Source: Salinispira sp.
GTDB lineage: Bacteria; Spirochaetota; Spirochaetia; DSM-27196; Salinispiraceae
NCBI GenBank assembly: GCA_965602015.1
Contig: OZ271918.1
Location: forward strand, 3,072,001 to 3,136,000
DNA length: 64,000 nucleotides
Direction: 5' to 3'
Of the stretch, positions 36,368 through 55,701 are shown one piece after another. Numbering within the stretch: position 1 is the stretch's first letter; every line of letters begins with the position of its first letter. The notes beneath the pieces were generated by a model, which was given only the letters and a program-made list of their open reading frames with translations, did no database searches and had not been told where the DNA came from. Both the position numbers and the translations under genes were made by a program.

Positions 36368-39300
36368 TTAGAAGGTCGGCGCCTGGAGATCCTTTCTGAT
36401 GTCGGGGTCGATCTGGACCGCGTCATCGAACTCCGGCGCGAGAATATATGTGAGATTCAGGAAGGCCAGCGGCCGGGCATCGGCCCGAACCGCGGTTTCC
36501 ACATCGCGATTCAGGTTCTCCGAGAGTTCGGCAGACCGGCTAAGGAAGAGCTGGCTTTGGGCCAGGAGATCCTCTGCATTCTGTCCGCCCTGGCGGTACA
36601 ATCGGTAGAGGGTCACGCCGAGATTGTTGTTGGCCCGGACCTGGAAATCTATCAGTGCGCGGTGGCGCTGATCCTCCTCAAGAAGGAAGGTTGATATGCT
36701 CCGTCGTTCTGCGGTGAGTTCTTCCAGGAGAATGCGATAGAGGCTTGCCGCATCAAAGTAATTCTGTCGCATGAACTGGGTGTTCGCCCGGGCGTACAGC
36801 AGGTTGATATTCGCGGTGGGTATGGACCCTTGTGCGGTATTAAACTCCCTGATCGCCTGGTCGAGAAGGGCCTGTTGCCGCATAAGATCCCGTTGATCGG
36901 CCAACTCTACTCTTGCGCCTTCGAGCCGCAGATCAAGATTGTTCGCCCGGTGAAGAGCAATAAATCCGAGCTTGTATGCCAGATCCTGCCGTTCCCGGAA
37001 GAGTTCCGGGTGGGTGTCCGGCCGGCCGTAGTCATTTTCCCTGGCCTGGGTGAAGTACTGGTAGGCCGCATCATAGTTGCTCGCTTCGTAGTAGTAAATA
37101 TCACCCAGAAGGGCGTACGCCCTTCCGAACATCGGCGATGCTTCAACCTTGCGGGCCTCCAGAGCCCTTTCGTATTCCTGCACCGCAGTGCGCAGCCGGG
37201 TTTCGGCGCTGAGGACTTCTTCGAGGCGATACAGGTTTTCCGCCTCCCGAATATACGTATCTACCTTCCGGGCAGTCTCGAAGCGGTCAAGAGGCCGCTG
37301 CAGCTCCAGTTCCTCGAAGAGCTCCCGGGCATTTCGGAGGGCGGTAATTTCATCCTGCAGATCGCCGGTCAGCCGGGAATACCTGGCGCGATAATAGTGG
37401 ACTTCCGGAATAGTATCGTCCAGCTCCATGGCCCGATTAATCACCCGGAGGGCATCCTCCTGAAGGGACGCGACGGTTTCATCGCCCCGCAAACCGGCGA
37501 CGAACTGATTTATCAGTTCCTCGCCTCCGCCGGGACCGACGCCGCCTATGCCTTCTTCGCTCAAATCAAGCAGGAATCCTCCGAGCTCGGTCATCCCCCG
37601 GGGATCAAGTTGTGCCCTCTCATCGGTGAGGAATAAATCTTTCAGATTTAAGGCGTCTTCGATATTACGGGTGTTGATAAAATAGCGCAGCATCCTGAAC
37701 AGAAGCTCATCGGACTGGCCGTTGCGGTCGATCAGGCTTGCGTACTCATATCTGGCGGACTCAAAGTACTCAGCGCGCTGATCCTCATCTCTGGTAAGAA
37801 TGCCCCACTCAAGGTACGCGTCACCCTGAGTGATGCGGGCATCGTAATCCCAGGGATCTTCCCTCAGCAGACGACGGAGATATTCAATGGCCGTTGGATA
37901 GTCCCGAAGATCGTAAATCGCGAAATCCGCGTATCGAAGAATTCCCTCCCGGTTGAGCGGGTCAATATCGTCGGACAAGAGGGTTTCGTACTTTTCCCGG
38001 GCAAGGGCAAACTGCCGCTGATCAGAAAATGCTTCGGCATACTCCAGAAAGCGGGAGTTGACCGGCCAGATTTCATATGCCTGCTCAAACAGCCTGTTGG
38101 CCTGCTGGTATTCCTGGAGTTCGATATTTTCCAGACCCTGCTCATACAGGTTCCGGGCGAAAAGCGGCTGGTATATAAATCGGTATCCGAGAAACAGCAT
38201 GGCCGCCAGCATGCCGGTTGCGGCCAGCACCAAGCGGAGCACCGGCCAAATGGTTTGGCTGAACTGGTAGGCAAAGCTCTTGCGTTCCTGCTCAAAATGT
38301 TCCCCGGTGCGTTTTTCATAACCCCGGGGTATTTCTATTTTTTTGCCGGAAATCTTACTGACGATTTTCGCGATATCCCGAGGGGGTTGCCGCTGGTACA
38401 ATGCCTCGATGAGGGGAAGGATTTCCTCAAAATCGTATTTCCCCCCGGCGATGATTTCCGAGGCTGCGATTTTTAAATTGAGAGGCAGATACGCGAGAGT
38501 ACTCTTGAGGTCGGAGAACTGATCATCGGTGATGGCGAAATCCGCGGCCTGGTCTTCTGCGGCGGCCTCTTCAAGCGCCTCTTCGACCATCGCCTCGGCT
38601 TCCGGAGACGCGGGTTCTTCTTCAGCGAAGTCTTCGGCGGCTTCGTCTTCCATGATCCCGAATTCCGCACCGAAATCTCCCATGGAAAACTCATCGCCAA
38701 AATCCGAACTGTCGAAATCCGAATCGAAGTCTCCAAAATCCTCGAGACCGCCTCCGGCCTCATCCGAAAAATCCGCTGACTCAAAATCCCCGGAATCAGC
38801 AAGACCATCTGTTGGGGCGGTTTCTGCAAATCCCTCAGCATCGAATGCCTCGTCGTCGCCCGGAGCGTCAAAATCTCCGAAATCACTGTCGGGCGACTCG
38901 TCGCTGAATTCGATGCCCTGATCAAAATCCGTATCGAAGGACGGCTCACTGAGATCTTCCGAAAGATCTCCGTCTAGGCTGTCGCCCAGTTCATCGGCGT
39001 CATCTATTGATTCAAAATCATCCAGGCCGTCACCGAGATCATCTGACAGATCACCGCCGAGATCGTCGCCGAGGCTGTCGCCCAGTTCATCGCCGCCGTC
39101 TATTGATTCAAAATCATCCAGGCCGTCACCGAGATCATCTGACAGATCGCCGCCGAGATCGTCGCCGAGGCTGTTGCCCAGTTCATCGCCGCCGTCAATA
39201 GTTTCAAAATCATCCAGGCCGTCACCGAGATCATCTGACAGATCACCGTCGAGATCGTCGCCGAGGCTGTCGCCCAGTTCATCGGCGTCATCTATTGATT

Positions 39301-40024
39301 CAAAATCATCCAGGCCGTCACCGAGATCCTCTGACAGATCACCGTCGAGATCGTCGCCTAGGCCGTCGGCATCATCAGCAACGTCAAAATCATCGAATCC
39401 GCCGCCCAGATCGCCCGGGATGTCCCCCTCGAAATCTTCGGGCACATCATCGTCGGGGCTGGCGGAGAAATCATCGGGGACGTTTTCAGGAGAGGTGAAC
39501 TCATCGGCGCCGTCGAACTCGTCTGCGCCGAAGTCTTCCATGGAAAGGTCGTCGCCCAGATCCAGACCGTCGTCGGATTCCTCATCCATGTCGGGGCTGT
39601 TAAAACTGGAAAGGTCGGTTTCTGCTTCTTGTTCTGCTTGTTGATCATCGGCGGCGTCAAGACCGAAGTCGCCGCCGAAAACGTCCGATGAGAAATCCTC
39701 ATCTTCCGGGGCATCCAGCCCAAAATCCGTCAGCTGCGGTTCTTCTTCGTCGAGTCCGAGATCGCTGAGAAAATCCGCATCCGGGGCAGGCATGCCCTCG
39801 ATCGATTCATCCTGGGTATCATCCGTTAGACCGTCACTGAGATTGGAAAAAAAGTCCTGTGCGACAGCCTCTGCGGAATCGGCTGGGGACCCCGAGTCAA
39901 ACTCTCCAGCCCGGGGCGCTTCAACGGCCTCGACCTGCTCGCCGCGCTCCGCAGCTATTTCAGGCTCGTTACCCGTGCGAACGAGAGATTCGTTAAACTG
40001 TTGCAGGGACTCATTGCTGGGCAT
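36368..40024 (-). CDS. flcA: Periplasmic flagellar collar protein FlcA-like
   Basis: Long acidic N-terminus, LPLNLKIA..EII, KKIEIPRGYEKRTG, a single TM helix and a TPR-rich C-terminus with NNLGVTL. This is the architecture of spirochete FlcA. Confidence 0.82.
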   Translation of the reverse strand: MPSNESLQQFNESLVRTGNEPEIAAERGEQVEAVEAPRAGEFDSGSPADSAEAVAQDFFSNLSDGLTDDTQDESIEGMPAPDADFLSDLGLDEEEPQLTDFGLDAPEDEDFSSDVFGGDFGLDAADDQQAEQEAETDLSSFNSPDMDEESDDGLDLGDDLSMEDFGADEFDGADEFTSPENVPDDFSASPDDDVPEDFEGDIPGDLGGGFDDFDVADDADGLGDDLDGDLSEDLGDGLDDFESIDDADELGDSLGDDLDGDLSDDLGDGLDDFETIDGGDELGNSLGDDLGGDLSDDLGDGLDDFESIDGGDELGDSLGDDLGGDLSDDLGDGLDDFESIDDADELGDSLDGDLSEDLSEPSFDTDFDQGIEFSDESPDSDFGDFDAPGDDEAFDAEGFAETAPTDGLADSGDFESADFSDEAGGGLEDFGDFDSDFDSSDFGDEFSMGDFGAEFGIMEDEAAEDFAEEEPASPEAEAMVEEALEEAAAEDQAADFAITDDQFSDLKSTLAYLPLNLKIAASEIIAGGKYDFEEILPLIEALYQRQPPRDIAKIVSKISGKKIEIPRGYEKRTGEHFEQERKSFAYQFSQTIWPVLRLVLAATGMLAAMLFLGYRFIYQPLFARNLYEQGLENIELQEYQQANRLFEQAYEIWPVNSRFLEYAEAFSDQRQFALAREKYETLLSDDIDPLNREGILRYADFAIYDLRDYPTAIEYLRRLLREDPWDYDARITQGDAYLEWGILTRDEDQRAEYFESARYEYASLIDRNGQSDELLFRMLRYFINTRNIEDALNLKDLFLTDERAQLDPRGMTELGGFLLDLSEEGIGGVGPGGGEELINQFVAGLRGDETVASLQEDALRVINRAMELDDTIPEVHYYRARYSRLTGDLQDEITALRNARELFEELELQRPLDRFETARKVDTYIREAENLYRLEEVLSAETRLRTAVQEYERALEARKVEASPMFGRAYALLGDIYYYEASNYDAAYQYFTQARENDYGRPDTHPELFRERQDLAYKLGFIALHRANNLDLRLEGARVELADQRDLMRQQALLDQAIREFNTAQGSIPTANINLLYARANTQFMRQNYFDAASLYRILLEELTAERRSISTFLLEEDQRHRALIDFQVRANNNLGVTLYRLYRQGGQNAEDLLAQSQLFLSRSAELSENLNRDVETAVRADARPLAFLNLTYILAPEFDDAVQIDPDIRKDLQAPTF
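38976..39362. repeat. Intragenic tandem repeat, 96 bp x about 4 (32-aa acidic unit)
   Basis: TTCAAAATCATCCAGGCCGTCACCGAGATC recurs at 39011, 39107, 39203 and 39299. Confidence 0.95.
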
Positions 40025-41706: not shown

Positions 41707-42615
41707 ATGGGAACCGTTAGGGACGTTTACGGCCACATTGCGCTCGAACTTGTAAAAAATAGTGTACACAGCAGCCAGATCGAACCGGATGCGGTCTACC
41801 AGGAAGCCAACAAATCGAACCGCCGCATTCTGAACAAAATTATCAGCGATCTGTTATTGCCGGAAAGCACAATCCTGGGCTTCCACAACCTGCAGAGACT
41901 GCATAATCTCGCAGAGGAGGGCAAATCCTGCCTCATACTCATGGAGCATTACAGCAACTTCGACCTTCCGAACTTGTATTATTTACTTGAAAACCTCTAT
42001 CCCGGCGGAGAAGAAATCGGCGATGACATCATCGCCATGGCCGGTATGAAATTAAATGTCGAAAGCGATTTCGTACGGGCATTTACCGAAGCCTATACCC
42101 GAATAGTCATCTATCCTTCCCGAAGCCTTTCAAACCTGGAAGGTAGCGAAGCCTATGAAGCAGAACGAAGCAAAAGCCGGAAGATAAACATGGCGGCATT
42201 GCACGAAATGGTGCGTCAAAAACATGCGGGTAAGATTATTCTACTGTTCCCCAGCGGGACCAGATATCGACCGGGCGTGGAAGAAACCCGCAGGGGTCTG
42301 GCTGAAGTCGATTCGTATATAAAAGGCTTCGACTATATCCTTCCCATAGGAATCGCCGGCAACACCCTCAGAATCAACACCAGCGGGAGCATGAGCGAGG
42401 ACTACATCCAGAAGGACTGCATGGTTTTCGCCGCCGCCGAAGTGCATGACGCCAAAGAATGGCGAAACGGGATCCGGGAAAAGGCGCCTGAGGGAACCGA
42501 CTCAAAGCAGTTCGTCGCAGATGCAGTGATGAAATGGCTTTCGGATCTTCACAACGAAGCTGAGGACTACCGTCAAAAGCACCTGCCCGAGGGTTATCCC
42601 GACAGCGTACTATGA
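41707..42615 (+). CDS. Glycerol-3-phosphate/lysophospholipid acyltransferase
   Basis: HX4D motif (EHYSNFD) and FPSGTRYRP. RBS GGAGG precedes ATG 41707. Confidence 0.85.
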   Translation: MGTVRDVYGHIALELVKNSVHSSQIEPDAVYQEANKSNRRILNKIISDLLLPESTILGFHNLQRLHNLAEEGKSCLILMEHYSNFDLPNLYYLLENLYPGGEEIGDDIIAMAGMKLNVESDFVRAFTEAYTRIVIYPSRSLSNLEGSEAYEAERSKSRKINMAALHEMVRQKHAGKIILLFPSGTRYRPGVEETRRGLAEVDSYIKGFDYILPIGIAGNTLRINTSGSMSEDYIQKDCMVFAAAEVHDAKEWRNGIREKAPEGTDSKQFVADAVMKWLSDLHNEAEDYRQKHLPEGYPDSVL

Positions 42616-43539
42616 GGCGGGACGGGATTTTCTTCGGTCAAGGGCGTACAGCCTGACCTGTTCGGCAAACCCCATCCGCTCCAGGAGCGAGCTGAGGTAC
42701 ACGCTTCCGCTCCAGTTCTCCAGGGTGATTATGTCTATGCTTTCTTCCGCCGATGCCTCTATGTAGCGTTCGATGAGGGTGGTGGCGATTCCCAGCCCCC
42801 GATATTGGGGCTCAATGTATATTTGCAGCATGTGGCCCACCGAGCGCTCAGAACTGAGTTCATCATGCAGGACCCACAAAAAACCGCAGATCTCCCCCCC
42901 CGGAAGAAAAACCCCCAGGATGTACGATCCGTTTTCCAGGTCATCAGCAGCCGGCAAGTGGTCCCGGCGAAATGAATACCAATACGAGGATTCCCGGGGG
43001 TCGGGGAAGATTTCAGCGAATACTTTTTTATCGAGATAGACAACGGTCTGCAATGTGGCCCGGTCCTCGACCTGGCAAATGGTGAAATCGCTGAGCACCA
43101 GGTCCTCACCTTCGAAAATATCGGCTTTAAGGGCTTCCAGTCCCCGGCTTTCCCTGATGCCGTTAAACCATTGAAGAACCCGGCTCTTCATTTGGCGGTC
43201 TTTAAAGAAGAACCACAATTTTTCCACTTCCCGGTGCTCTTTCAGGCAGTTTTTGAACTGGCGGAAAACTCCCCTGCCGCTTTGCAGAATGCTTTGAAGC
43301 TCGTGTTTCACGATGGGATTTTTCAGATCGGCGACGAAACGCTCCATCAGGTTATATCCGTCAACCGACCGCCATTCCGGTATTTCTTCCAGGTCAGGTT
43401 CTCCGTCAATAGCTTCGGCCTCGTCGCCACCGATGACCTTTCCCCGGTCCAGATCGAGGAAAAACAACTGGTCCTGATTTTCCATCCCGAATATGACCTG
43501 GTCGACAAGTTCTTTGCTTAATTCCATATCGCTGCGCAT
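42610..43539 (-). CDS. UPF0158-domain / GNAT acetyltransferase fusion
   Basis: N-terminal GYNLMERFV...GRGVFRQFKN. C-terminal IYIEPQYRGLGIAT (acetyl-CoA motif A). Confidence 0.82.
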   Translation of the reverse strand: MRSDMELSKELVDQVIFGMENQDQLFFLDLDRGKVIGGDEAEAIDGEPDLEEIPEWRSVDGYNLMERFVADLKNPIVKHELQSILQSGRGVFRQFKNCLKEHREVEKLWFFFKDRQMKSRVLQWFNGIRESRGLEALKADIFEGEDLVLSDFTICQVEDRATLQTVVYLDKKVFAEIFPDPRESSYWYSFRRDHLPAADDLENGSYILGVFLPGGEICGFLWVLHDELSSERSVGHMLQIYIEPQYRGLGIATTLIERYIEASAEESIDIITLENWSGSVYLSSLLERMGFAEQVRLYALDRRKSRPAS

Positions 43540-43544
43540 AACTG

Positions 43545-45365
43545 TTAGTTCGCCTGCTCCGAGGGAAATCGATGGCCCTCTGCGAATCGCTCCTGCTCCA
43601 TTTCCTCCAGCTCTCGAATCTTCCCTTCCACGTGGTTCAACTGCAGTCGTGCCGGCGGACAAAGCCTACGGTGCCAAACCGCCACCTTTCCATCGTCCAA
43701 GGTCTGGCCTGAGACAATAATGCGCACCGGGACGCCCATCATATCCAATTCGCGAAATTTTTGCCCCAACGGGATTTTTCTGTCGTCATGGAGGATCGAT
43801 GCGCCGAGGCGCAAGTGAAGCTTGTCGCCGATTTCCCTGATGGTAGCGCTGCGGCCCACAACCAACAGCGCCGCCTTGTACGGCGCGATATTTATAGGCC
43901 AGAGAAAGCCGTTCTTCATCCGGTGAGCCTCCACAAGACTGGCCAGCAGCCTACCGAGGCCGATTCCGTACGCTCCCATTGAAGGATAGAATATTTGTCC
44001 CTTTGTATCATGCAGGGAAAAATCGAATTTCCGGCTAAAATACTCGCCGATGCGGTATACGCTGGCAATTTTTATGGTTTTTTCTAGCTCAAGTGCGCCG
44101 CCGCAGTGACGGCAGGTACAGTTTTTATCGACCTCGACAAAATCACCCACGTAGTCCCCGTCGAAATCCCGCCCGAAATTGACATTTATTAAAAACTTCC
44201 CCGGACTGCCTTGTGAGAAAACCAGATTGCTGCTCTCGCTGACCGTAAGATCCACAGCAGTCAAAAACCGGCCGCCCTGGTCCTCCATGGTAACCGGACG
44301 CTTCATGCCGACGGGGGTGAGAAATGCCTGTGCCGTCGGAGGGCCGGGTTTGCGGCGGCCCTTTTTCGGCCGCTGATACCGGGCATACCCAAGATCGTGA
44401 AGCTCCTGCTCTCCAAGCTCGGATATGATGGGCTCGCCGATTACCCGAGCGAGCTTATCGAGGGATATTTTTTTGTCTGAACGGTATACGGCGGCTACAT
44501 ACCCGTCCATTATCCGGTAGATTCCGCAGGTCGCAGTGCGGCTTTTTGGCAGGCCTTTCTGTTGACGAAAGCAGGAGAGACCAAAACAGTCGGGGTTCGT
44601 AATGATTTCCATCGGCAGGGGACGGCCGCTGGGATGGGCCGAGTTGGCGACAGCCACATCCTGGTTCGCGTTATAGCCGCAGGAGGGGCAGCGAACCAGA
44701 ACATCCTCTCCCCGTTCGTGCTTCATGAGGAAATCATACGAACTGGTGCCGCCGGTGAAATTGGCGGCACCTTCAGTTGAAGCGATATTCAGCCCGAGCT
44801 GCCGGAAAATACGGGAAAAAATCGCGAAGATTTTCGGCATAAAGTTATTCAACTCGGTAAAACTGCGGTGAAATGAGTAGCCGTCGCTCATGAGAAATTC
44901 CCGGGCCTTGAGAAGTCCGGATTCGTCGAGAGCCTCGTCGCGGAATTTATTCTGGAACTGAAAAAAGAAACGGGGAAGCTGCTCTACCGAAGATATGCTT
45001 CTGGCGAGCATTTCGATGCACGCCTCTTCGTGCATGGGAGCGAGAACCAGGTTATTGCCGTTATGGTCATTAAACCTCGTCAGTTCCCGGCTTATCATTC
45101 GGCTTCGGTCCGATCGGTCCCACAGGTCGCCGGGATTCACCAGAGGGAGGAGAATTTCTTCTCCACCCAAGGCACGGAACTCCTCGGCAATAATGTGGCC
45201 GATTTTCTTCATGACCATCATGCCGAGGGGCATAAAGGCGAATAGCCCGTCACCGATTTGCCTGATATAGCCTCCCTCCACAAGCATGCGGCTTCCCTCG
45301 AGACGATACTGCGGGGTCGGACCGGCATTCTGGGATGGTATGTGGAGAATTTGGCTCATTTTCAT
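43545..45365 (-). CDS. Divergent prolyl-tRNA synthetase paralog (bacterial type with INS region)
   Basis: KFRDE...REFLMSDGYSFH, MGAYGIGLGR and anticodon domain DDR..GQKF..DMMGVP are present, but several conserved residues are substituted. Confidence 0.85.
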   Translation of the reverse strand: MKMSQILHIPSQNAGPTPQYRLEGSRMLVEGGYIRQIGDGLFAFMPLGMMVMKKIGHIIAEEFRALGGEEILLPLVNPGDLWDRSDRSRMISRELTRFNDHNGNNLVLAPMHEEACIEMLARSISSVEQLPRFFFQFQNKFRDEALDESGLLKAREFLMSDGYSFHRSFTELNNFMPKIFAIFSRIFRQLGLNIASTEGAANFTGGTSSYDFLMKHERGEDVLVRCPSCGYNANQDVAVANSAHPSGRPLPMEIITNPDCFGLSCFRQQKGLPKSRTATCGIYRIMDGYVAAVYRSDKKISLDKLARVIGEPIISELGEQELHDLGYARYQRPKKGRRKPGPPTAQAFLTPVGMKRPVTMEDQGGRFLTAVDLTVSESSNLVFSQGSPGKFLINVNFGRDFDGDYVGDFVEVDKNCTCRHCGGALELEKTIKIASVYRIGEYFSRKFDFSLHDTKGQIFYPSMGAYGIGLGRLLASLVEAHRMKNGFLWPINIAPYKAALLVVGRSATIREIGDKLHLRLGASILHDDRKIPLGQKFRELDMMGVPVRIIVSGQTLDDGKVAVWHRRLCPPARLQLNHVEGKIRELEEMEQERFAEGHRFPSEQAN

Positions 45366-45560
45366 GTACTGCCATTGTAATTTGCCTTCGCTCTGCTGTC
45401 CATTGACAGTTCGTCAGTCGGGCAGCAGCCTTGACAACCCAACGGCTTTGTCAGATATTTGTCCTATACCAACCCTCAATTTGGCTGCGGAAACATCGTT
45501 CCCGATGTAATCCGCCATCTGCCGCTTTCCGCAACGGAACGGTGGAAACACATACAATAG

Positions 45561-46862
<1,302 letters not shown>

Positions 46863-46896: not shown

Positions 46897-46924
46897 ACCC
46901 GGAGCCCATGCTCCGGGTTTTTTT
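46897..46924 (+). terminator. Terminator after eno
   Basis: ACCCGGAGC-ccat-GCTCCGGGT followed by a T-run. Confidence 0.85.
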
Positions 46925-47351
46925 AATATTCAACGGTGTCATCCCAGAAAAATTCAGATTCACGGGGCAGTATGGATTCAAGCAGAAATCCGGTTTCGGC
47001 CTGGAAGGTACTTATGTGATAATCTCCGGGGGCCGATACCGGCAATACCGAAGCGGCCACCAGAAATTCGGCTTCCCGGTATGCCAATCTCCGGGTGCTG
47101 AGGCTGAAACCGACCTGGGATATAAAGTAGACTGCGGCACCCAGAACAAGGACTGCGGCAGCAGCCCGGGCGGCTAGGGCAGGGCCGCGACGAAACGGCT
47201 GCGGCGCCCGTCTGGAATAGCCGGGCCGGGGCTCTGCTCCTGCTGCGGCGATACGCCGATCGAGCTCGGAACGGCCGGAGTTGCGCAGCATGCCGATGAC
47301 CTCATCTGAGCTGTATGTTCCCTGCCTATGACGAAATTGTCTCCTACTCAT
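46923..47351 (-). CDS. Putative single-TM anti-sigma factor
   Basis: Overlaps the ECF sigma stop codon and has one TM helix. Confidence 0.6.
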   Translation of the reverse strand: MSRRQFRHRQGTYSSDEVIGMLRNSGRSELDRRIAAAGAEPRPGYSRRAPQPFRRGPALAARAAAAVLVLGAAVYFISQVGFSLSTRRLAYREAEFLVAASVLPVSAPGDYHISTFQAETGFLLESILPRESEFFWDDTVEY

Positions 47352-47907
47352 GTTTTCCTCCCTCGACTTCACGGCCATAGAGCCTGTTGAACTGGCGGGC
47401 CAATCCTTTCCTTCCCGCAGAAAGGCGTGATTTAACCGTGCCCTCAGGCAGCTCCAGTATGCTGGCCACTTGGGAAACCTGCATGCCCTCCAGCTCTTTG
47501 AGCAGGAGAGGAATTCGAAGCCGCTCCGGAAGTGCCATCAACGCATCGATAACCGCCCTTCTCTTCTCATCGCGTTCCAGGACTTCTTCCGGACCGGAAT
47601 AGGGGCTGGCGGCGATGGTCAGGAAATCATGATTCTCAACAGATTCCCTGCGCCTTCTGGTCCTGCGCATCGCATCAAGAGCGGCATTGCGGCAAACAGT
47701 AAAAAGCCAGGTCTTGAACCCATCGGGGCCATGAAAGCTATTGAAATTCAGATAGGCGCGGAGCAGCCCTTCCTGAAGGCTGTCCTCAGCTTCATGGTAA
47801 TTGCCCCGATGAAGAACAAACAGATAGCGTCGAATCGACGGGAGATGAGGTGCAATAAGCTCCCCTATCTCTTCCCGCCGATTCCGACTCTGTGCGGAAT
47901 CATGCAT
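47344..47907 (-). CDS. ECF (sigma-70 group 4) sigma factor
   Basis: AEDSLQE, FKTWLFTVCRN, ALMALPERLR and GTVKSRL. Confidence 0.93.
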   Translation of the reverse strand: MHDSAQSRNRREEIGELIAPHLPSIRRYLFVLHRGNYHEAEDSLQEGLLRAYLNFNSFHGPDGFKTWLFTVCRNAALDAMRRTRRRRESVENHDFLTIAASPYSGPEEVLERDEKRRAVIDALMALPERLRIPLLLKELEGMQVSQVASILELPEGTVKSRLSAGRKGLARQFNRLYGREVEGGKHE

Positions 47908-48419
47908 TAATCCGCGTGCTGGTAAATGAAGCGCAGAGTTGGAAGGAGCTCTGGCCGGGCTGCGCGGATCCGGTCGTCAAGGAGCCTCATGTCCATACCA
48001 CGTTCTCCAAGACCTCTGCCAAACTGCTTCATCTGGGCCCATCGGCGCTGACCGAGGATTTCCTGCAGCTCTATACCTCGACGGATCTCCGCCATCCGCA
48101 GCTGGATTTCGAATTCGATTCCCTGCCGAATGAGATCTTCAATTTCTTCGAGGTCCGGGTTTTGCTCTACCATTTCCCGGGAAATCTGCGCTCTCAGCAC
48201 TTCCAACTCGGCAGTCGGAATGCGTCGAGATTCGACAAACCGGTTTTGTACTTCATTTATTGCTTCGATTTCCTCTTCGCTGAATCTCAGGCGCTCGAGA
48301 TTTTCAATAATTTCCCGGTCCGCCCGGTCTCCACGGTGATTCTGCCCAAAAAGCACGGCGGGCAGCACGAGCAATAGGGAGAGTCCGATGCCGATTCGCA
48401 ATAGAGTATTGTTTTTCAT
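47907..48419 (-). CDS. Periplasmic Spy/CpxP-like (heavy-metal-sensor-like) protein
   Basis: Signal peptide, helical body, LRFSEEE and EILGQRRW (LTxEQ-like). First gene of the ECF operon. Confidence 0.7.
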   Translation of the reverse strand: MKNNTLLRIGIGLSLLLVLPAVLFGQNHRGDRADREIIENLERLRFSEEEIEAINEVQNRFVESRRIPTAELEVLRAQISREMVEQNPDLEEIEDLIRQGIEFEIQLRMAEIRRGIELQEILGQRRWAQMKQFGRGLGERGMDMRLLDDRIRAARPELLPTLRFIYQHAD

Positions 48420-55604: not shown

Positions 55605-55617
55605 GTATCCGGCATAG

Positions 55618-55701
55618 TGCCGGCGGGGAGACTTGAACTCCCACACCATTGCTGGCGGCAGATTTTGAGTCTGCTGCGTCTACCAATTCCGCCACGCCGG
55701 C
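55618..55701 (-). tRNA. tRNA-Leu(CAA); CCA end not encoded
   Basis: GCCGGCGTGGCGGAATTGGTAGACGCAGCAGACTCAAAATCTGC...GGGAGTTCAAGTCTCCCCGCCGGCA, with a long variable arm. Followed by CTA. Confidence 0.96.

Follow-up and report, generated by a model that had tools for sequence, protein, structure and literature searches.

A second prolyl-tRNA synthetase of spirochaetes, possibly turned pseudo-synthetase in the family of Salinispira

Why would a spirochaete keep a full-length prolyl-tRNA synthetase (ProRS) paralog in which catalytic residues have been replaced? The question is raised by a gene of Salinispira sp. (GenBank assembly GCA_965602015.1; one contig, 99.67% complete), found in the 64,000 nucleotide stretch of contig OZ271918.1 (positions 3,072,001 to 3,136,000, forward strand) that we analysed and will call the window. 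The gene (43545..45365, minus strand) encodes 606 aa, with a catalytic domain, an insertion (INS) domain (weak, E 0.003), a four-Cys site and an anticodon-binding domain all on one chain. As we describe below, it belongs to a clade that is real and conserved, apparently undescribed among synthetase paralogs, and for which a function can be inferred. A reading of the sequence alone (the sequence-only reading) had taken it for a retained paralog with a new role, and the features that it quoted are all found in the open reading frame (ORF) at 43545-45365: the motifs LAPMHEE, FRDEALDESGLLKAREFLMSDGYSFH, TIKIASVYRIGEYFS and MGAYGIG, the basic insert, the 606-aa frame and two CxxC pairs (C226/C229 and C418/C421). 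In the database the gene is called as 580 aa (P0179), with a start ca. 26 residues further in, but we favour the longer form because the orthologs share its start Met and the position of the promoter agrees with it. Pfam recognizes tRNA-synt_2b and HGTP_anticodon, with the editing domain below its cut-off. The closest solved structures are bacterial ProRS (5znj, 5ucm, 2j3l), identity to a canonical bacterial ProRS is ca. 29%, and the scores fall below the NCBIfam cut-offs for this enzyme (377 vs. 558 bits for PRK09194 and 301.2 vs. 306.7 for TIGR00409).

A first part of the answer is found elsewhere in the same genome, which has three ordinary tRNA-Pro genes and encodes a 484-aa ProRS of the archaeal/eukaryal type (TIGR00408, 591.9 vs. 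a cut-off of 437). Because this separate, intact enzyme is present, the window paralog is not the housekeeping ProRS, as had been suspected; the second proS does exist, though it is archaeal/eukaryal-type and not bacterial-type. Among 80 genomes chosen for a top-tier or a high-identity split match to the paralog (only some of them sequence-checked), a second ProRS was found in 78, archaeal-type in 61 and canonical bacterial-type in 17. In the fragmented assemblies G164 and G173 only the paralog was found, but congeners of both carry the archaeal-type gene. Three genomes possibly have three ProRS genes each, the paralog, the archaeal-type gene and an extra frame of 574-602 aa with an INS domain (G014:C431:19198-19560, G047:C6:120179-120550 and G223:C101:26352-26702).

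The second part concerns the residues that were replaced. We assigned E. coli numbering (motif-2 loop R144, K279, H369) to what we take to be the equivalent positions of the window protein, and the E. coli columns were checked against 140 canonical ProRS sequences. The roles of the residues come from the Pro-AMP structure of the M. tuberculosis (Mtb) enzyme, mapped by motif and not by direct alignment; there, the Thr and Glu of the TxE loop bind the proline nitrogen, Glu211, Glu422 and His425 (Mtb numbering) position the metal, and Arg142, Glu144, Phe157 and Arg462 contact the adenine and phosphates (PMC13629369). In E. coli the motif-2 loop Arg (R144) contacts G72 of the acceptor stem (PMC10164551), and a K279A mutant is defective in editing (PMC3973320). 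The TxE loop of the window protein reads M111-H112-E113 (45027..45035, minus strand), so that the proline-binding Thr is gone and the Glu retained. The metal-positioning trio reads D211, K432 and S435, the last two within the metal/ribose strand K432-I-A434-S435-V-Y437 (44055..44072, minus strand), which in the alignment replaces E-x-G-H/N-x-F. The acceptor-stem Arg, present in 134 of the 140 canonical sequences, is L146, and the editing Lys and gatekeeper His positions are T279 and F391. The editing region thus lacks its conserved Lys, as the sequence-only reading had it, and carries a basic insert (residues 329-343; 44337..44381, minus strand) that is common only to the closest relatives. 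The change from MGCYGIG to MGAYGIG, also pointed out in that reading, is there but uninformative, with Ala in 9 of 52 clade members. On the other side of the balance, E113, R142, E144, F157, M159 and R472 have been kept, together with the four Cys and the greater part of the anticodon-domain residues.

A search over 301 genomes of the class gave a top tier of matches, and 71 full-length matches were read. These fell into 19 canonical spirochaete ProRS and a separate clade of 52 sequences (FastTree support 1.0); the 52 come from 52 genomes and 25 families, and eight more intact copies were seen later. The clade persisted after adding 138 database representatives (support 1.0, stem 0.42, FastTree), nesting in a subgroup of bacterial ProRS that includes Anaerolineae and other spirochaete ProRS, and it was recovered by IQ-TREE with 46 sequences (SH-aLRT 100). 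Every named homolog is from a spirochaete, including Spirochaeta thermophila, S. africana and S. lutea. Outside the class, a phylum-wide sample of 151 genomes gave no score above 653 bits, vs. 727-874 for clade members, and the 20 loci read there were all canonical, without the clade signature described below and without enolase or GNAT neighbours.

The window paralog is under purifying selection, with dN/dS about 0.1. By the Nei-Gojobori method, and approximately since synonymous sites are near saturation, the values were 0.10-0.12 against G006 and 0.13 against G005, compared with 0.03 and 0.06 for the housekeeping proS and 0.02 for enolase; of ten other paralog pairs, those seven for which dS was finite gave 0.03-0.10. 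Constraint is about equal across all four domains (pN/pS against G006 of 0.22-0.26). A retained paralog with orthologs is therefore what the tree and the substitution rates describe, a distinct class-wide clade with dN/dS nowhere near 1. One could still see in it a slowly decaying relic of a displaced proS, held in place by synteny and heading for loss. The paralog evolves ca. three times faster than the housekeeping proS, the window's family sits on long branches and two of its seven genomes gave no match, the acetyltransferase genes that lack the paralog (see below) are scattered in a way that implies repeated loss, and two loci (L138:1730-3411 in G126 and L155:3743-5439 in G244) are split by single-base indels. 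These indels lie in A-rich runs, however, and may be either decay or sequencing error. The dN/dS largely refutes the relic. The frame is also intact, the promoter conserved, the gene retained across 25 families and the signature present in all the homologs compared, so we consider this explanation very unlikely.

The signature is the most distinctive property of the clade. It occupies a helix after motif 2, H166-x5-L172-N173-N174-F175-x-P177 in the alignment (44835..44870, minus strand). H166, L172, N173 and P177 are present in 67/67 clade sequences and F175 in 66, and L-N-x-F-x-P was found in 119/119 homologs (a set overlapping the 67). In the 140 canonical ProRS the same columns are variable (P177 in 1%, F175 in 6%), with 69-90% polar residues at 173-175 and 177. 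A second signature, G504-R-S506, lies in the anticodon-binding domain (43848..43856, minus strand; alignment). G504 is present in 65/67 clade sequences. When canonical and paralog sequences are compared over 537 columns, entropy falls most at G504, and P177, F175, N174 and N173 complete the top five. Even the 13 most degenerate sequences of the clade all retain L-N-N-F-x-P. Because the canonical columns are variable and mostly polar, this helix looks like an exposed face that may have become a binding surface. Alternatively, the helix may have repacked internally against the adjacent proline-binding loop, itself altered throughout the clade (D200 to Gly or Ala, and aromatic residues at 203 and 210).

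How far does the loss of catalytic residues extend? The sequence-only reading had made the substitutions the hallmark of the paralog, and as a property of the paralog family this does not hold, since the active site is complete in most of the clade and the losses mark the window's own family. In 54 core clade sequences, Thr/Ser was found at the TxE position in 53, R142 and the equivalents of E422 and R462 in all 54, and the editing positions K279 and H369 in 51 and 40 respectively. Three of three core members tested pass the PRK09194 cut-off (576-605 bits vs. 558), and HGTP_anticodon was detected in 43/43 aligned members. Position 432 is Lys in the 11 sequences nearest to the window protein and Glu in 108 of 109 others. 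Within these 11 nearest sequences A434 is present in 10, D211 in nine and M/S111 in all, while E113, R142, E144, F157, M159, K432, R472 and K536 are each 11/11. IQ-TREE places catalytic decay on separate branches, that of the window's family (support 99.9), that of four further sequences (98.5) and that of a single sequence (88), the last being only probably a separate lineage. The 13 "degenerate" sequences, a set taken from the FastTree grouping, are therefore not one clade, because IQ-TREE splits them into three branches.

The completeness of the core members brings in a simpler explanation, that the paralog is a back-up or stress isozyme still charging tRNA-Pro. There is a precedent in Bacillus thuringiensis, which has a P-type and an E-type ProRS in one genome, both functional and charging tRNA-Pro (PMC11229370). 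Core members keep the catalytic, acceptor and editing residues, the three tested pass the ProRS cut-off, and the paralog is the only ProRS seen in G164 and G173, although congeners of these two carry the archaeal-type gene. The parallel is also imperfect in that the P-type copy here is a separate, fast-evolving clade that has repeatedly degenerated and coexists in some genomes with a canonical P-type ProRS. The window protein itself, under the cut-off and without T111, the E422/H425 equivalents or the acceptor Arg, fits the idea badly, and a back-up role leaves unexplained both an invariant new surface motif and repeated catalytic decay under selection. We find it quite unlikely, more so for the window copy than for the core members.

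The INS domain suggests another role, in trans-editing, by which the paralog would be kept to clear Ala-tRNA-Pro produced by the archaeal-type ProRS, itself without an editing domain. There is no other INS/YbaK-family match (YbaK/ProXp-type) in the window's genome, the paralog is the only INS-family match in 13 of 45 genomes that have it together with an archaeal-type ProRS, and the core members largely keep the K279 and H369 equivalents. Yet the window protein has Thr and Phe at these two positions, and the K279A mutant is editing-defective (PMC3973320). Moreover, the paralog and free-standing editing proteins do not complement each other in their distribution: additional INS-family matches occur in 32 of the 45 genomes, and 20 of the 35 genomes that lack a paralog-tier match have no INS-family match at all. 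Finally, 17 genomes hold the paralog beside a canonical, INS-bearing ProRS. Trans-editing seems to us highly improbable.

A re-tooled enzyme deserves more consideration. The active site would have been remodelled to activate another amino or carboxylic acid, or to make a nucleotide product for a non-ribosomal acceptor, possibly together with the GNAT acetyltransferase encoded next to it. The replacements are fixed among the nearest relatives (K432, M/S111 and, almost completely, A434 and D211) on a background of invariant E113, R142 and R472, the proline-binding loop differs across the clade, and known aminoacyl-tRNA synthetase paralogs do pass amino acids to other acceptors (PMC9437257). Against this, all three metal-positioning residues have changed together, related sequences lose the motif-2 and motif-3 arginines and still keep the signature, no biosynthetic cluster or carrier protein was found in 12 wider loci, and EpmA-like genes are already present in 41 of 45 paralog genomes (E <= 1e-60, most of them below the family cut-off). 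We regard it as unlikely. The last figure also gives no support to the paralog as a substitute for EpmA. Two other known roles fared no better. A HisZ-like regulator of proB, which should co-occur with this first enzyme of the pathway, is unsupported, as proB went undetected in 7 of the 45 paralog genomes compared with 4 of the 35 others, and so is a ProRSx-like dedicated tRNA, since in a strict-pattern search of six genomes for a Pro acceptor stem with a non-Pro anticodon, 14/14 Pro-acceptor tRNAs, in five genomes, carried Pro anticodons. From the options listed in the sequence-only reading, the sensor or adaptor remains the best, and the HisZ-like and EpmA-like ones find no support in co-occurrence.

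If the paralog is an adaptor, which partner does it serve? The gene at 42610..43539 (minus strand, 309 aa) starts 5 nt after the paralog stop and is probably co-transcribed with it. Its product matches Pfam UPF0158 and Acetyltransf_1 above their cut-offs (GNAT domain PF00583, 39.3 vs. 20.7), with acetyl-CoA motif A intact (R-G-x-G conserved). This linkage is conserved as had been proposed, the UPF0158-GNAT gene being found downstream of the paralog in 48/52 loci (one miss is a contig end) and in 0/19 canonical ProRS loci. The divergent upstream neighbour (45570..46862, plus strand), which we take by sequence recognition to be enolase, is also part of the conserved locus, adjoining the paralog in 45/52. 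On the other hand, the GNAT profile matches 196 of the 301 genomes, some weakly. Among 40 GNAT loci fetched, 36 of which had been picked for no apparent paralog, 12 had a whole or partial paralog, 19 had the GNAT gene directly beside enolase and nine had neither. GNATs from loci that lack the paralog are dispersed over the GNAT tree, pointing to repeated loss of the paralog, and they show only conservative sequence differences. Conversely, three paralog loci lack the GNAT gene and no UPF0158 match was found in their genomes (the positive control matched). An obligate pair is therefore rejected in both directions. The suggestion that the paralog works with the acetyltransferase survives in part, the operon being ancient, with repeated losses of either gene, and cooperation being possible but not required. 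As to the acetyltransferase itself, it is a widespread spirochaete protein of uncharacterised function, with an N-terminal domain far better conserved than the GNAT domain and bearing invariant basic and aromatic residues; UPF0158 is mentioned in PMC8767425.

The paralog gene has a promoter-like site of its own, as the sequence-only reading had supposed. This sigma-70-like site (TGGACA-17-TACAAT; 45374..45402, minus strand) stops 8 nt short of the ATG, and a Shine-Dalgarno sequence is absent. A promoter scan gave two sites vs. 0.4 expected from shuffles, the other facing the enolase gene. Of 47 paralog loci scored, 41 have a -10 box 4-10 nt from the start, vs. 0/32 for enolase, with a few of these paralog starts mis-picked by the pattern; the paralog mRNA is probably leaderless. 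This is not a special feature of the gene. The same layout, with -35/-10 boxes that end 4-10 nt ahead of an ATG, is seen at 63 long ORFs of the window's genome, several of them presumably synthetase genes by recognition, which suggests many leaderless mRNAs in this organism.

Putting these lines together, the explanation that we prefer, with a confidence a little short of even, is that the window paralog is the family version of an ancient, class-wide second ProRS and has become a pseudo-synthetase whose role is other than the supply of Pro-tRNA. Judging from the residues kept and lost, the pseudo-synthetase dimer would still bind tRNA-Pro via its anticodon domain and would probably bind ATP or AMP metal-free, a Lys sitting at the position of the metal-binding Glu. 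The L-N-N-F-x-P helix would dock a partner protein, making of the whole a tRNA-presenting adaptor or a tRNA or nucleotide sensor, with the UPF0158-GNAT acetyltransferase as the first, though not obligate, candidate. In most other spirochaetes the paralog probably still forms Pro-AMP, an ability that would be dispensable. A more specific and quite doubtful version is that the paralog, as an adaptor specific for tRNA-Pro or a sensor of its charge state, guides the UPF0158-GNAT protein, or another partner on the same helix, in acetylating a translation protein, tRNA-Pro or Pro-tRNA-Pro. We would then be seeing the system in the middle of its evolution, with catalysis preserved in most families and lost independently in several. 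What the sequences show is the second ProRS, the clade, its selection, the residue losses, the invariant patch and the linkage; the loss of activity, the binding of tRNA and nucleotide, the exposure of the helix and the identity of the partner are deduced from these.

Several observations weigh against this explanation. The exposure of the signature helix is argued from the variability of its columns. GNAT genes without the paralog make up 28 of the 40 GNAT loci fetched, the signature is retained in the three paralog loci that have no GNAT, and the GNAT shows no strong co-varying sites; with each gene found independently of the other, something other than the GNAT may be the true partner. The motif-2 and motif-3 arginines, retained in 9 of the 13 degenerate members, are lost in the more distant ones, and nucleotide binding is then not the essential function throughout the clade. 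Gly534, in the anticodon domain, is relaxed (another residue, Ser, in 9/54 core sequences, and Gly in only 2/13 degenerate members). Finally, given the full active site and editing residues of the core members, most of the clade may still have a catalytic role.

How does the paralog compare with what is known? It shares with the bacterial P-type ProRS (PRK09194/TIGR00409) the domain order, motifs 1-3, the four-Cys site, the INS and anticodon domains and its position in the tree. It differs in that the window copy falls below both cut-offs, with T111, the metal site, the acceptor Arg and the editing Lys and His replaced, and in that L-N-N-F-x-P and G-x-S are restricted to the paralog clade, which nearly always has a second ProRS beside it. 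HisZ and EpmA/GenX are class II synthetase paralogs without an anticodon domain. The window paralog, unlike them, keeps every domain, and it shows neither co-occurrence with proB nor complementarity with EpmA; the likeness would lie in recruitment outside tRNA charging (PMC7373986, PMC9437257), established for them and inferred here. Streptomyces ProRSx likewise arose by duplication of a bacterial ProRS and serves other than housekeeping ends, but its partner is a dedicated tRNA with an Ala anticodon (PMC9437257), of which our search found no equivalent. Closest to the function that we propose is SerRS, which selects the tRNA for METTL6 and sets a precedent for a synthetase as a tRNA selection factor; with DALRD3-METTL2 it offers a functional analogy only, that of a synthetase or synthetase-derived protein choosing the tRNA for a modifying enzyme, as these are eukaryotic methyltransferases without homology to the spirochaete proteins (PMC11479938). 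No description of the clade was found in the literature searched. By term search, the available text of PMC9437257, PMC5388404, PMC7373986 and PMC11229370 does not mention spirochaetes, although two ProRS genes may be recorded for some of these organisms in the genome tables of PMC5388404, and that of a genome paper on a free-living spirochaete (PMC4511686) does not mention prolyl-tRNA synthetase. Most sources that name the paralog call it an ordinary proline--tRNA ligase, and it is this label that has hidden it.

Other genes of the window were also noted. An acyltransferase gene (41710..42615, plus strand) is convergent with the GNAT gene and overlaps its end. The protein encoded at 36368-40024 (minus strand) has 1218 aa, with TPR repeats and an extended N-terminal part that is acidic and repetitive, and presumably resembles the spirochaete flagellar collar protein FlcA; in relatives its gene is syntenic with CBM48, HAD and acyltransferase genes. 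Two small genes without Pfam matches flank an ECF-type sigma factor gene (46923-48419, minus strand), and at 55617-55701 (minus strand) there is one of the two tRNA-Leu(CAA) calls of the genome, which also has two for tRNA-Leu(CAG).

Synthetase paralogs have repeatedly held new biochemistry, as happened with HisZ, EpmA and ProRSx. In the spirochaete clade, intact and disarmed versions sharing one invariant patch provide a natural series for the passage from an enzyme to a non-catalytic adaptor, and the patch tells exactly which residues to mutate. Some of the named spirochaetes mentioned above are available in culture. If the proposed connection is true, it would give a first handle on the uncharacterised UPF0158 domain.

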